From positions 832,001-896,000 of the forward strand of contig CM000430.1 of the NCBI GenBank assembly GCA_000165345.1: DNA of 64,000 nucleotides. Reading direction: 5' to 3'. The translations under genes were made by a program, and so were the position numbers. The notes beneath the pieces are model-generated. The model ran no database searches, was not told the DNA's origin, and worked only from the letters and a program-made list of their open reading frames with translations. This document shows, one piece after another, positions 1 through 64,000 of the stretch (its first letter is position 1; every line of letters begins with the position of its first letter).

Positions 1-731
1 AGAACAAAAACGAGATCAAAAAAAAAAAAAAAAAAAATCAAGCAAGAGATTAAGGTGTAAAATGAACACAGGAATTTATAAACATAAGGTTTTGATTTTT
101 TCTTTGAGAAAATAGTGGATTTATTTACACATTTTTTCTAATAATTAAAAAATTTAAATATATTTGCATGCTTTGCGCGCCAAAATACCTAGTGGTTTGA
201 TAATACTAGTTTAAAATGACAATTTAATAAATGGAATAAAAGTAATAAAAAATGATAATAGACAAAAAATATTTGGAATTATTTGGTTCATAATAAGAAA
301 CTTCAGTAAATAATGAAAAAAATTACTGAAAAAAGAGGACTAAATGAAAGTAAAGAAATAAATATATTATACTAATATTAAAAATTTTAGTATGCATGTA
401 GAATACTGCACACACACAAAATGGCGAAAATTAAAAAAAAAAAATATGAAATAATGGAATTTCACGACATGTACGCTAAATTATAAAAAAAATTGGAAAA
501 CAAGTTTTCAACGAGTTGATTAAGTTATAAACGGAAATATAGTGAAAAAGAGTGTGAGAAGAAATAAAGCTAAAGTTGGAAAATATAGTAAAGAAAGAAA
601 TTAGGTCATTAAGCTTATATTGCTTGCATGCATATATGCATGAAATGTATATGCTGTATAATATATAATAATATTTTGATTGAGAAAATAAATTAAGTTA
701 ATATTGGTGAATAGTTTTTCTAGTAGAATAA

Positions 732-2219
732 ATGTATTTACATAATAAAGAAAGTAATGTTGAAAGGATTAGAATAAATTTTAAAGATGAGCTAGGAGTG
801 GTTGCAACAAATATATTTAAGAGAGCATTTGTTAGTATATTGAAAAAGCATGATAAATTTCATAATGGGATAGTGACAGCAGAAAAATTTTGTAATTCAA
901 TTAAAGAAACAGATGAATGTTTAAGAAAAGAGGATAATATTTGGGGTGTTATAGTGGATTCTGAAGATAAATGTAATGTATCATCCCCTATTATAACCTC
1001 AATAATGAGTTTAGTTCAAATAACAGAGGATAAGTACGTTAACTGTAAGCCTTTATATTTAGATGTTGAGAGAATAGTATCAACAGTATTGGTGAAGAAT
1101 CCATATAACGAGAGTACTATTATGGTAAGTCAAATACAAAGAACGTCTTTAGAAAAGGATCATGTAAAGTACTCAGTAAGATGTCCAAAAATGTTTTTGG
1201 AAGATTTGTATCCACCAGCTTTAGAATCAGCAAATAAATATAGTAATAAAAATAGACAAAATAGCATTTTTGAAATAAATAGAAAAGATTTTTCAGAAGA
1301 GAATGATACAGAAAAACAAGAAGAAAAACTTCCTCAGTTAAGAGCTCTTCCTCCTGATAAATTAGATGATTTCAGAAAGTTATATGCGATGTGGAATAGA
1401 TGTATGTTATCCGATGAAGATTTTATAATACATATGAAGAAGGATATTGGAATAGAACAGATTCCAAGAGAATTTTTGTTACAAGTTGCAAATAAAGGTC
1501 CAAGCAGAACTTTATCTTTTAGAGATGCAATCTGCTCCTTATTTATTAATGATGTTGATTCTTTAAGAAAATATAGACCAGATTTTTTAGTTCCTCAGCC
1601 AAGTAGAATTCCAATTGAAAGTGTTTATAACCCAGTAACACATGAAGATACTATTGATAAAAGCACTCAAAGAATTCTGGAATGCTGTAAAAAAGGTTAT
1701 GGAAAGATATTTAACTCTATTGATTCACTTAATGATGATATGCTTAATGATTTTAAATCATTTGGAAGAAGACATAAACAAAACTCTAGTGAATCTGCCA
1801 TTCTTAAGAAATCTATAGAAATTAATAATCAACTTAGTAACAAAAATGAGATCCAAGTATCTAGTTCTGATATAAGTTCAACTATATCTCCAAATCATTC
1901 AGAAAAACCCAAATTTGATTTTGTTATTAACGATATTGATTCTGATGAAGAGCGTGCGAAAATAAGAGGAAAACAGCTATCCAATTATCATAGATTAACT
2001 GTAACTATGCCTAATACCCTTCAAACTCAGCTTAAAAGATGCGCTGCTGGCGAAACTTCTGGTAATGCCATTAGGCAATACCTTAAATATTATGGTATAC
2101 CTATTTCTGTTTCTATGGATACTCTTCTAAGAAGAAGTGATGAAGATGGATCTGTCTCCTTTACTTCATTAATGAAAGAAGTCTATCATTCTATTAAAAA
2201 CATGCAATCTTCTTTATAG
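732..2219 (+). CDS. hypothetical protein (495 aa), single exon
   Basis: Long ATG-initiated ORF. AT-rich promoter upstream carries TGCATG motifs. I recognise no domain by eye. Confidence 0.6.
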   Translation: MYLHNKESNVERIRINFKDELGVVATNIFKRAFVSILKKHDKFHNGIVTAEKFCNSIKETDECLRKEDNIWGVIVDSEDKCNVSSPIITSIMSLVQITEDKYVNCKPLYLDVERIVSTVLVKNPYNESTIMVSQIQRTSLEKDHVKYSVRCPKMFLEDLYPPALESANKYSNKNRQNSIFEINRKDFSEENDTEKQEEKLPQLRALPPDKLDDFRKLYAMWNRCMLSDEDFIIHMKKDIGIEQIPREFLLQVANKGPSRTLSFRDAICSLFINDVDSLRKYRPDFLVPQPSRIPIESVYNPVTHEDTIDKSTQRILECCKKGYGKIFNSIDSLNDDMLNDFKSFGRRHKQNSSESAILKKSIEINNQLSNKNEIQVSSSDISSTISPNHSEKPKFDFVINDIDSDEERAKIRGKQLSNYHRLTVTMPNTLQTQLKRCAAGETSGNAIRQYLKYYGIPISVSMDTLLRRSDEDGSVSFTSLMKEVYHSIKNMQSSL

Positions 2220-2272
2220 CCAATTTACTATTCTTGCATTACATGCAAGTTACATGTTTAATAATTCGCAGT

Positions 2273-2284
2273 GGCGCCGGCGCC
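2273..2284. promoter_or_regulatory. tandem E2F-like GGCGCCGGCGCC site
   Basis: Lies 140 bp upstream of the 2423 ATG. The GGCGCC family recurs in nearly every 5' region of this window. Confidence 0.5.
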
Positions 2285-2422
2285 AATATGATTTTATATT
2301 TATATTTGTTAATTTACAATAATAGACTTTTAGGCTTATTTGATTAATTTGTGATTACCAACAACTATAGAGTCAATAAGAGATTTTTTTTTGAGTAAGT
2401 ATCTGCGGATTCATTTTGCAGA

Positions 2423-61589: not shown

Positions 61590-61792
61590 ATAAATATATA
61601 TATAATATATATATATTTATATATATATATATATATTATATATATGCTATAATTACATTTATATATTATAATTTATATTCTAAAGCTACTTATAAACTAT
61701 TTCACTAGTTATTTATATATTGGAAAGTTAATATAAAACAAATAAGTAAGAAACATATATATATATATATATATATATATATATATATATAT
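61590..61792. repeat. two (AT)n/(TA)n microsatellite blocks in the long Myb upstream region
   Basis: atatatatat runs at about 61596..61640 and 61757..61790. Confidence 0.8.
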
Positions 61793-61936
61793 TACTATTA
61801 AGAAGGAACTAAATATACTTTAACGCTAAGAATATTATTAATAACTAGCATTTGGATCTAAAGCTAGGGGATCTGTTGTTAGGCCAGATACTATATAATC
61901 TTTCATTTATTGCTTTATTATTAATTATTGGAAAAG

Positions 61937-63697
61937 GTAATGTTGAACTATACGGTAGGATCTGATAATTTAGAAAATGGTATGATCTGCTACTATGGAG
62001 AAGATGAGGTAATTGGTGGGTACCCAAAAAGAAAGTTTGAAGAAGATACTGAAGAAGGATTTGAAAAAGGAAATAGAAAGAAAAGGTATATATTGGGCCA
62101 AAATGTGGGAAAATGGACTGATGAAGAACATAATAGATTTGTATTAGCATTGAAAAAATTTGGAAGGAATTGGACTCTAGTACAACAAGAGGTTAAAACT
62201 CGTACTCTTGTCCAGATTAGATCTCATGCTCAAAAATACTTTTTAAAAAAGGTTAGAGGGATTGCACCATCAACTTTGACAATGGATTCTAAGCTAATTT
62301 CTACAGCTTCTGATGGAATTGTTCCAACATGGCTTCTTCAAGATGATTCTAATTTTGCTAATAAAACCTCAATCAATGCAAGTAGTAACATCAACCCAAA
62401 TAATACAATGGTCAATAATAATGGAATGAGTAATTCTGGGAAAAGCTCAAATAGTATTGGAGGTATGAATCTATATATATATAACGAAAGCTCAAATCCA
62501 GATTTGTCTATAATTGATGAACCAATTAACTTAGTAAATGTTTGTAACAGCAATAATTTGGAGACTTCAAATAATAATTGCAACAATAATAATAATAATA
62601 ATAATAATAATAATAATAATAATAATAATCACAATGACAGTAGCTGTATAAACGATAATATTAATAACAATATAACTGGGAACTGTAATAGTATGGATAA
62701 CTCAAATCTGGTAATATCTGGTGGAATGATTGGTGGTATGAACATTCTTGGAAACCCTATTTTAGAATCGGGGCTTTCTCCAGATATAAGATATAATAAC
62801 TATATGGGTAATAGTTTATTGGTTGATGACCAGAGAGACCAGTGTATTTATCACGACTATAGAACAGGTTTAATAGATCTTAAGACTGATGTAACGCCTA
62901 GGCTTGACTATAGTCCTCAGGGAGGGGGAGGGGGAGGCTTAATCCCTAAACAAATTGTTAATGACTGTATTTTTGATGAACCTTACAGTGATAAACGTGT
63001 TTCTGTAGATTCTACAAGTTTGGTATCAACAGCAGTTTCTAGCCCTGCCTCCATTAGTCCAGAAAAGAATTACATTCCTGCCTCATCAATGGGATTGGAT
63101 ATGCTACTTATGCCTCCCACGGTGGAAATGGAGCAGAATGATAGCAACCATCAGAATTCTTTTCAAAAGGGTTCCAATGGATATTCAAATAACAAAACAT
63201 GCAATACTAACAATAATAACCCACGTTGTAACACTCAAAATATTACAAGTAATGGAAATACCAATAATAATACATTGAGAGAGGACAACTTAGGAATAAT
63301 TCCGGAATCTTTAAGCTATGGACTCAACTATAACTTTGAAGACAATGAAAACATTATTAATCCTTCCATATCTTTGTCAAACTGCGATGTGCCTTGGCCA
63401 TTAACAGGAGGTGACCAATTTCTTCATTTCAACGAGAGTGACAATGCTATCTCATCTTCTCCCTCAGCCTCTTCTTCAATCTCTTATTTAGACCTGGACT
63501 CATCATCTGAAGCTAAACATTATTCAACAAGAGTATCAGCAAGCCCAAATAAACAACAATATGACATGGGAAATACGTTCTCTGACTTTGTTTATTGTGG
63601 GGACTCCCTTGGAGTTGACCTCTTAAATGTATACACCAATTTGAGAGACTCTTCAAGTCCTATCATAGATAATGCTGATGTCACTGAATTTATTTAA
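61937..63697 (+). CDS. Myb-like DNA-binding protein, SHAQKYF class (single Myb/SANT repeat), with poly-Asn tract
   Basis: GKWTDEEHNRFVLALKKFGRNWTLVQQEVKTRTLVQIRSHAQKYFLK. The first ATG in frame is at 61937; the codon upstream of it at 61925 is TTG. Confidence 0.75.
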   Translation, partial: VMLNYTVGSDNLENGMICYYGEDEVIGGYPKRKFEEDTEEGFEKGNRKKRYILGQNVGKWTDEEHNRFVLALKKFGRNWTLVQQEVKTRTLVQIRSHAQKYFLKKVRGIAPSTLTMDSKLISTASDGIVPTWLLQDDSNFANKTSINASSNINPNNTMVNNNGMSNSGKSSNSIGGMNLYIYNESSNPDLSIIDEPINLVNVCNSNNLETSNNNCNNNNNNNNNNNNNNNNHNDSSCINDNINNNITGNCNSMDNSNLVISGGMIGGMNILGNPILESGLSPDIRYNNYMGNSLLVDDQRDQCIYHDYRTGLIDLKTDVTPRLDYSPQGGGGGGLIPKQIVNDCIFDEPYSDKRVSVDSTSLVSTAVSSPASISPEKNYIPASSMGLDMLLMPPTVEMEQNDSNHQNSFQKGSNGYSNNKTCNTNNNNPRCNTQNITSNGNTNNNTLREDNLGIIPESLSYGLNYNFEDNENIINPSISLSNCDVPWPLTGGDQFLHFNESDNAISSSPSASSSISYLDLDSSSEAKHYSTRVSASPNKQQYDMGNTFSDFVYCGDSLGVDLLNVYTNLRDSSSPIIDNADVTEFI

Positions 63698-64000
63698 ATG
63701 ATAATTTCAATAAAAATTATTAAAAGGGTAAATATGTGGCTTTATTTTTATGGCTTCAAACAACTATTGGCTAAAAAGTGAAACCTCTACTTTAGAACTA
63801 TTTTATTATAATTGCCTCAGATTGTTGGGATGTATAGTATTATTAGTTATTTACAAAAGAGTTAGGTGTTTTACTTTGCAAGTTGCTTTTGAGATAAAAC
63901 TCAAACAATATGAACATCTCAGGGCTTCTTTAATTTTTTTTTAAATTGTTTTGGGATTTTTTTTGTTTTAATTATTTACTTTCTCCATTAACTTTTCTTG

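Follow-up and report, generated by a model that had tools for sequence, protein, structure and literature searches.

The window analysed here is a stretch of 64,000 nucleotides (positions 832,001 to 896,000 of the forward strand of contig CM000430.1, assembly GCA_000165345.1). It is densely packed with genes, among them those for EF1-beta, deoxyhypusine synthase (DHS), V-ATPase subunit H and an ABC transporter, and the spacers between them carry two kinds of recurrent short word, an E2F-like core and the hexamer TGCATG, which are the subject of this work. The gene map was taken from the gene ranges recorded for NCBI assemblies, and exons were rebuilt from product lengths and GT-AG rules. Sixteen introns were resolved in this way (the introns of genes 2423-3056 and 59198-59970 are not among them). 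Gene spans cover 72% of the window, while 29 spacers make up 17,855 bp (27.9%). The GC content of the window is 27.2%, lower than the 30% or so given in a preliminary description of this DNA, and it is 22.5% in the spacers compared to 29% in the genes.

The window is part of a Cryptosporidium parvum chromosome. Positions 302-21432 and 46797-64000 (stretches of 21 kb and 17 kb) are 100% identical to CP044421.1 of GCA_015245375.1, an assembly described in a data paper as C. parvum IOWA II (ATCC), and positions 20751-46543 are 99.98% identical to the same record, with one 6-nt indel. Protein searches confirmed the genus, which the preliminary description had proposed partly from the motifs. EF1-beta (encoded at 55562-56305) had its top matches in Cryptosporidium (89% identity in C. 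ubiquitum, 88% in C. canis, 81% in C. felis and 75% in C. ryanae; 59-91% over the Cryptosporidium species, with 63% in C. muris and 59% in C. andersoni). Outside the genus the top match was Besnoitia (46%), and the other Apicomplexa did not exceed 46%. The DIL-domain protein encoded at 19221-21605 gave significant matches in Cryptosporidium only. A collinear arrangement of the genes was observed in C. ubiquitum, C. felis, C. ryanae and Cryptosporidium chipmunk genotype I.

We defined the E2F-like core as [CG]GCGC[CG] or GGCGGG (18 and 20 core sites in the window respectively). Chance expectations were obtained from 100 dinucleotide shuffles, none of which reached the observed counts of GGCGCC (16 vs. 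0.38 expected), TGCATGCA (10 vs. 0.58) or TTTCCCGCC (5 vs. 0.04). The comparison of intergenic with coding DNA that had been suggested as a check gave a clear result: there were 29 intergenic vs. 9 genic E2F-like cores (binomial P=8e-10), 52 vs. 21 TGCATG (binomial P=2e-14) and 9 vs. 1 TGCATGCA. The intergenic bias was repeated in seven of seven orthologous loci from four other species. An unbiased ranking of 6-mers and 8-mers against a second-order Markov model of intergenic DNA gave the highest places, behind poly-A and (TA)n, to CATGCA, GGCGCC(AA), GCGCCA, CCCGCC, GGCGCCAA, TGCATGCA and GGCGGGAA. CATGCA was the most over-represented intergenic 6-mer (52 vs. 3.9 expected), and about 0.5 copies of GGCGCC were expected in the 17.9 kb of intergenic DNA.

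The motifs lie on the promoter side of genes. An E2F-like core was present in 17 of the 21 spacers bordering at least one gene start vs. one of the seven convergent spacers (Fisher P=0.003). The earlier statement that such elements sit in almost every 5' intergenic region thus stands when the core types are pooled; with the strict [CG]GCGC[CG] core it applies to only 12 of the 21. E2F-like cores are 119-556 nt away from the nearest facing ATG (median 301 nt), and TGCATG is somewhat farther away (median 412 nt). The proposed pairing of the two motifs was also borne out, as 14 of the 29 intergenic E2F-like cores have a TGCATG within 60 nt, compared to 7.2 expected when the TGCATG sites were re-dealt within the same spacers (P=0.002). 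The palindromic core is embedded in a TT-core-AA profile (T at 61-64% in positions -1/-2, A at 61-64% in positions +1/+2), and the flanks of GGCGGG follow a similar pattern. The resemblance between flanks ends after about 3 nt (mean identity 0.318 vs. 0.292 for random window segments), indicating independent short sites and not a repeat family.

All of the individual sites named in the preliminary description are real, with offsets of 0-21 nt over all of its coordinates. Ten of the 13 GGCGCC sites were placed exactly and three were off by 1-10 nt (15356, 19517/38372, 44345); three more, at 2279, 8943 and 49079, had been missed. The eight extended forms were all found within about 20 nt, the full 9-mer being matched at only three of them (4541, 6209 and 53636) and the 8-mer TTCCCGCC/GGCGGGAA at the other five (14138, 19729, 27717, 51305 and 56645). 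The five TGCATG(CA) sites are located at 2242, 9865, 23442/23459, 38396 and 58629-58641.

Several of the modules are conserved between species. In the spacer 56306..56796, the promoter side of the V-ATPase subunit H gene, TGCATG is located at -244 from the ATG in C. parvum, -241 in C. ubiquitum and -234 in C. felis; it is followed by TTGGCGCC (-211, -207 and -201 respectively) and by TTCCCGCCA (TTCCCGCCAAA; -154, -150 and -146 respectively), so that motif order and spacing are alike in the three species. The regions upstream of the DHS, RRM-domain and Myb-domain genes showed similar footprints, and for V-ATPase subunit H, DHS, EF1-beta and Myb, C. ubiquitum and C. felis, and in part C. ryanae, retain the motif at comparable distances.

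These words are the same ones that the literature assigns to E2F/DP-like and ApiAP2 sites, as the preliminary description had read them. Oberstaller et al. 2013, who attribute the first observation of both motifs (on chromosome 6) to Bankier et al. 2003, reported the E2F-like motifs (motif 3, DTTGSCGCCH; motif 4, TTTGGCGGGAAV; cores [C/G]GCGC[G/C] and GGCGGG) and AP2_1 (BGCATGCAH) as the top over-represented C. parvum upstream motifs genome-wide. The window presents the same organism, cores, TT/AA flanks and upstream over-representation, together with conservation in orthologous promoters, and the palindromic (T)GCATGC(A) of AP2_1 is enriched in its non-coding DNA. The E2F-like words also share the consensus of the canonical E2F/DP site of animals and plants, TTTSSCGC (Zheng 1999 and Ramirez-Parra 2003, quoted in Oberstaller et al. 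2013; TTTCCCGCC / TTTGGCGGG in Arabidopsis), including the symmetric CG core and the T-rich/A-rich flanks. Cryptosporidium differs from the canonical systems in that the motif is found upstream of most genes and not of a cell-cycle subset, and in that pRb and most other E2F partner proteins are reported to be absent. Two to three E2F genes and two DP genes are described in C. parvum; none of them lies within the 64-kb window.

Regarding TGCATG, the AP2 domains of cgd2_3490 and cgd1_3520 bind TGCATGCA in protein-binding microarrays (Oberstaller et al. 2014), and so does the orthologous AP2 domain of Plasmodium falciparum PF14_0633. This bears on the use of the motif pair as a marker of the genus. 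AP2_1 has the same palindrome and intergenic enrichment as in the window, but TGCATGCA is common to Plasmodium and the site is shared across Apicomplexa, so that it is no genus marker alone; only the E2F component is diagnostic, because E2F/DP was reported absent from other apicomplexans (Oberstaller et al. 2013). In a preprint by Xiao (2025), E2F motifs dominate the peaks of sporozoite ATAC-seq (assay for transposase-accessible chromatin with sequencing); over half of these peaks carry a bidirectional-promoter annotation. AP2_1 is not among the motifs of those peaks and may therefore act at other life stages. The same E2F and AP2 motifs are listed in a 2025 review.

We consider it highly probable (around 0.9) that the recurrent words of this C. 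parvum DNA are promoter sites of the E2F/DP type and of the ApiAP2 AP2_1 type. TT-GGCGCC-AA and TTTGGCGGGAA/TTTCCCGCC would be the E2F/DP-type cis-elements of the genus, and TGCATG(CA) would be the AP2_1 site of ApiAP2 factors. Both would act as short independent transcription factor sites, placed in the AT-rich spacers at a distance of some hundred bases from the start codons downstream of them; often less than 60 nt apart, they would mark the promoters, many of them bidirectional, of a very compact genome. From the consensus match and the literature we infer binding by an E2F/DP heterodimer and by AP2-domain proteins. Only DNA words were observed, so that the term chromatin, used in the preliminary description, is a misnomer. 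The promoter-motif finding is correct but already known, having been published (Bankier 2003, Oberstaller 2013/2014, Li 2021 and the Xiao 2025 preprint), and there is nothing new in the earlier interpretation of it; its interest is that raw sequence is enough to recognise the organism and its promoter grammar.

Some observations do not fit this scheme. Four of the 21 promoter-side spacers have no E2F-like core, and one of them, the divergent spacer 21606-22252 (647 bp), is the sole promoter-side spacer devoid of E2F-like cores, extended E2F words and TGCATG alike. The order AP2-then-E2F is followed in only seven of ten unambiguous tandem promoters, and was consequently dropped as a predictor of promoter direction.

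The preliminary description had also pointed to motifs in three regions that it took to be tail-to-tail (14100..14500, 19400..19800 and 53400..53676), which a simple promoter model does not explain. One of them is a true convergent spacer (14079-14799); the other two consist of 3' introns and exons of spliced minus-strand genes, so that the anomaly arose in part because the gene models had missed these 3' introns and exons. An intergenic nature of 19400-19800 and 53400-53676 was ruled out by the splice-model reconstruction together with the peptides of the downstream exons, which are 70-100% conserved across species in both genes.

The DIL-domain gene (19221-21605, minus strand) has an annotated product of 685 amino acids (aa), and not that of the 601-aa open reading frame. 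Its best splice model includes intron 1 (19677..19817, minus strand, 141 nt), with TTGGCGGGAAG at 19729 (read on the minus strand) and GCATG at 19750, and intron 2 (19404..19589, minus strand, 186 nt), with TTTTGGCGCCAAT at 19517 and TGCATGCA at 19558. The two downstream exons encode peptides with 100% and 95-97% identity in C. ubiquitum and chipmunk genotype I. The gene at 53441-54614 (minus strand; product of 284 aa) has a last intron (53502..53679, minus strand, 178 nt) with GGCGGGAAA at 53636 and TGCATG at 53612. This intron is real, as the peptide of the 20-codon last exon (53441-53501) is kept in C. ubiquitum, C. felis and C. ryanae. The convergent (3'-3') spacer 14079..14799 (721 bp) is the longest of the seven and the only one with an E2F-like core; it harbours TTCCCGCC at 14138, 60 nt past the stop codon of the 527-aa gene, and a cluster at 14432-14475 composed of CCCGCCCC (G-box-like), CATGCATG and AAAGCGCCAAA. 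In CP044421.1 these atypical sites correspond to approximately 139938 (14138), 139601-139644 (14432-14475), 134511-134559 (19517-19565), 134321-134347 (19729-19755) and 100438-100470 (53612-53644); in the CpBGF chromosome CP141119.1 they are found by adding roughly 837,950 to the window position.

Motifs are present in only three of the 16 resolved introns, all of them among the four longest (141, 178 and 186 nt); the 13 without motifs measure 182 nt, 129 nt, 101 nt and, in ten cases, 49-76 nt. All of the motif-bearing introns are 3'-terminal, in genes whose stop codon is 41 or 72 bp away from the convergent gene. The density of E2F-like cores is twelve-fold higher in introns (3 per 1.8 kb) than in exons (6 per 44 kb; P=0.004) and equals that of the spacers. 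E2F-like and TGCATG words occur together at all four of the atypical places (three introns and the convergent spacer).

Conservation of the introns was analysed in a five-species MAFFT alignment, three-way identity referring to C. parvum, chipmunk genotype I and C. ubiquitum. The DIL-domain introns are approximately 53% identical in this comparison. All three species retain GGCGGGA in intron 1; in intron 2, no 8-mer other than CGCCAAAA and the 5' splice site is identical in the three, and TGCATGCA is present in each of them, the C. ubiquitum copy being split by MAFFT. In the intron orthologous to 53502-53679, C. ubiquitum has TGCATGCA+GGCGGGCAA and C. felis has TTTTTGGCGCATTT, an E2F-like word being present in both. 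Chipmunk genotype I and C. ubiquitum also retain, in the convergent spacer, the CATGCATG-GTGGGGCGGG cluster and the TTTGGCGGGAATTTCTT that follows the stop codon. Overall, the atypical motifs are kept in C. ubiquitum at all three places, and in chipmunk genotype I at both of the places sampled there.

The motifs at the atypical sites are of the same kind as those upstream of genes. Considering that they are conserved across species, we tentatively interpret them as internal promoter modules driving unannotated, probably antisense, transcripts, a reading to which we give somewhat less than an even chance. Such promoters, possibly bidirectional, would match a published class. Li et al. 2021 reported antisense long non-coding RNAs (lncRNAs) for about 10% of C. 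parvum mRNAs, with a preference for the 3' end of the sense gene, and found that E2F/DP1 and AP2_1 are the top two motifs within 100 bp upstream of them. The four places in the window likewise carry E2F/DP1 and/or AP2_1 motifs near the 3' end of a coding gene, in the convergent or compact context that is frequent in that class; they differ in that motifs located inside introns were not described in that paper. The sites also lie outside the upstream regions as defined by Oberstaller et al. 2013, from whose motifs the promoter-side sites are no different. Conserved E2F plus AP2 modules in long 3'-terminal introns and in one convergent spacer, apparently fitting the antisense-promoter class, are the only modestly new detail of the window. 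More speculatively, it is possible that in the C. parvum/C. ubiquitum lineage some 3'-terminal introns of tight convergent pairs have been kept two to three times longer to house E2F plus AP2 promoter modules, which together with the convergent-spacer module would drive antisense or 5'-truncated transcripts regulating the partner or the host gene. If the atypical sites were promoters, they would provide concrete loci for antisense or internal transcription start in a genome where antisense RNAs accompany about 10% of the genes.

Two results may speak against internal promoters. Firstly, the three orthologous introns of C. ryanae are short (approximately 45-83 nt) and devoid of motifs, so the intronic modules are not genus-wide. 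Secondly, 23 k-mers from the three atypical regions (both strands, 40-700 nt away from the motifs) had no match in the part of the Li 2021 catalogue of 396 lncRNAs that was searched, in which a positive control was matched; a later annotation, that of CpBGF (GCA_035232765.1), lists 766 lncRNAs, according to the 2025 review.

The absence of the motifs in C. ryanae, and the weaker forms in C. felis, would also be expected if the atypical motifs were non-functional, that is, chance or decaying copies kept through close kinship, with the tail-to-tail anomaly being purely an annotation artefact. Two of the three regions had indeed been misclassified, and the comparison took in only three to four species. 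We nevertheless regard this explanation as unlikely: the counts expected by chance are tiny (GGCGCC being expected less than once in the whole of the intergenic DNA), the E2F half-site of intron 2 is perfectly conserved in an intron that otherwise, except for its splice donor, has diverged, each of the four places combines an E2F-like word with TGCATG in the manner of bona fide promoters, and the motif-bearing introns are two to three times longer than most introns of the window.

Another explanation is that the atypical motifs regulate the sense genes, their hosts or neighbours, either as intronic enhancers or silencers or as E2F/AP2 roadblocks or nucleosome-free boundaries that aid termination between convergent genes 41-72 bp apart. 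The 3'-most position of all three motif-bearing introns, so close to the stop codon of the convergent gene, the conservation of the motifs across species and the lack of a catalogued lncRNA in the part of the catalogue searched are in line with it. However, no precedent was found in the Cryptosporidium literature consulted, other tight convergent pairs (with 16- and 34-bp spacers) have no such motifs in the spacer, and the published link of these motifs to antisense starts at 3' ends is a simpler account, all of which makes sense-gene regulation rather improbable. Finally, the words are far GC-richer than their surroundings and recur many times, as a dispersed repeat, a mobile-element remnant or a by-product of base composition would, but this idea is effectively refuted by their dissimilar flanks, by the shuffles and the Markov model, both of which predict less than one occurrence, and by the orthologous positions of the sites in other species.

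Returning to the genes that host the putative internal promoters, the two DIL-domain 3' exons (19221-19403 and 19590-19676) have 95-100% aa identity to C. ubiquitum and chipmunk genotype I, compared to 76-83% for the whole protein, and their three-way nucleotide identity of 85-90%, which includes synonymous positions, suggests an overlapping constraint. Public gene models of other species also appear to lack genuine 3' exons: for the 284-aa gene, the orthologue is listed with 265 aa in C. ubiquitum and C. felis and with 149 aa in C. ryanae, without the conserved last exon, and the chipmunk genotype I model of the DIL-domain gene (598 aa) has neither of the two conserved 3' exons. Searches for small structured RNA genes with Rfam (gathering thresholds over the whole window, and E≤1 over 13700-14850) and ARAGORN found none. 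A small nucleolar RNA at approximately 14085 (minus strand), suggested by a candidate C-box (ATGATGA), was discarded because there is no matching D box and the C-box overlaps the coding last exon.

The promoter-side sites are distributed as follows. Upstream of the first gene (732-2219, plus strand), the spacer 1..731 has the E2F-like TGCGCGCCAAA at 176 and TGCATG at 165, 393, 625 (as TGCATGCA) and 637. The tandem spacer 2220..2422, promoter of the plus-strand gene starting at 2423, contains a double GGCGCCGGCGCC (2273/2279) and CATGCA at 2242. The promoter of the GST-like gene 3410-4216 (minus strand), in 4217..4656, has TTTCCCGCC at 4332 and GGCGGGAAA at 4541, and the same GGCGGGAAA is found at 6209 in the divergent spacer 6046..6689, with TGCATG around it (6202, 6220 and 6265). 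Ahead of the Sedlin gene (9174, plus strand), 8928..9173 carries GGCGCC at 8943, TGCATG at 8980 and CCCGCCAAG at 9015. In 9627..10301, promoter of the gene starting at 10302 (plus strand), E2F-like and AP2-like words abut in GGCGCCCATGCA at 9859, and TCGGCGCCAAA is located at 10116. The promoter of the spliced gene 12159-14078 (plus strand), in 11433..12158, shows CGCGCC at 11691, GGCGGG at 11844 and TGCATG at 11435, 11711 and 11757. The EF-hand gene 14800-15114 (minus strand) is preceded by 15115..15391, with TTTGGCGCCAAA at 15356, and the divergent spacer 16502..17264 has CCCGCC at 16710, TGCATG at 16732 and TGCATGCA at 16959.

In the central part of the window, the promoter of the B-box gene (28098, plus strand), in 27634..28097, combines TGCATGCA at 27636, TTTGGCGCC at 27649 and TTGGCGGGAAG at 27717. 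That of the ABC-transporter gene (30757, plus strand), in 29673..30756, has TGCATG at 29932-30025 (as TGCATGCA at 30025) and GGCGCC at 30497. Two divergent spacers come next, 38072..38756 with GGCGCC at 38372, TGCATGCATG at 38396 and TGCATGCA at 38430, and 43696..44879 with TTGGCGCCAAG at 44345 and GTGGCGCCAAT at 44408. The spacer 45339..46101, promoter of the gene starting at 46102 (plus strand), is without an E2F-like core and has only TGCATGCA, at 45643 and 45754. The divergent spacer 50976..52247, between the MIF4G-domain gene and the DHS gene, contains TTCCCGCCC at 51305 and CCCGCCAAA at 51751, both positionally kept in C. ubiquitum. The MIF4G-domain gene itself (47268-50975) has a GC-rich (39.6%) low-complexity part at 48000-50700, with (TTG)84 at 50202-50453. 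Of the six E2F-like words that the window has in exons, this gene accounts for four (48813, 49020, 49079 and 49098), most likely as an effect of composition.

Towards the right end, the divergent spacer upstream of EF1-beta (54615..55561) carries TTTGGCGCC at 54849 and GGCGCC at 55259. The promoter of the RRM-domain gene (58279..59197) has no strict E2F core and contains five TGCATG (58565-58775, with TGCATGCA at 58639), a cluster kept in C. ubiquitum. Upstream of the Myb-domain gene (61940-63697), the spacer 59971..61939 (1969 bp) contains TGCATGC at 60440, CGCCAAAA at approximately 60503 and CCCGCC at 60562, also kept in C. ubiquitum. This is the sole E2F/TGCATG cluster of that spacer (60440-60570) and it lies 1.4-1.5 kb upstream of the ATG. 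C. ubiquitum shares this remote placement, and C. felis does so roughly; the placement implies either an unannotated transcript or a very long 5' untranslated region. Elsewhere in the spacer there are (TA)n arrays, at 61589-61792.

Other words, absent from the preliminary description, are over-represented in the intergenic DNA of the window, namely ACACGT/CACGTA (11 vs. 1.6 expected), CCGGTA (9 vs. 1.2), AATAGTAA (21 vs. 4.3) and CATGTGGA/CCACATGC (5 vs. 0.12). The last of these resembles 'motif 5' (TTGTCCACATK) of Li et al. 2021.

Two differences between C. parvum assemblies were observed in coding regions. The CpBGF telomere-to-telomere assembly CP141119.1 aligned to the window in two blocks that overlap by approximately 105 nt at 37762-37866, which implies a tandem duplication of approximately 103 nt there relative to the window. 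The duplication falls within the gene 36578-38071 (minus strand), whose CP141119.1 model has 270 aa vs. 497 aa. The formin-like (FH2) gene 24064-27633 contains a perfect hexanucleotide repeat (CTGCTC x17.3) at 24458-24561. This repeat resembles a polymorphic microsatellite within coding sequence, because the sole indel over 20751-46543 is 6 nt long and the length of the FH2 gene product varies among C. parvum assemblies (1183, 1187 and 1189 aa).

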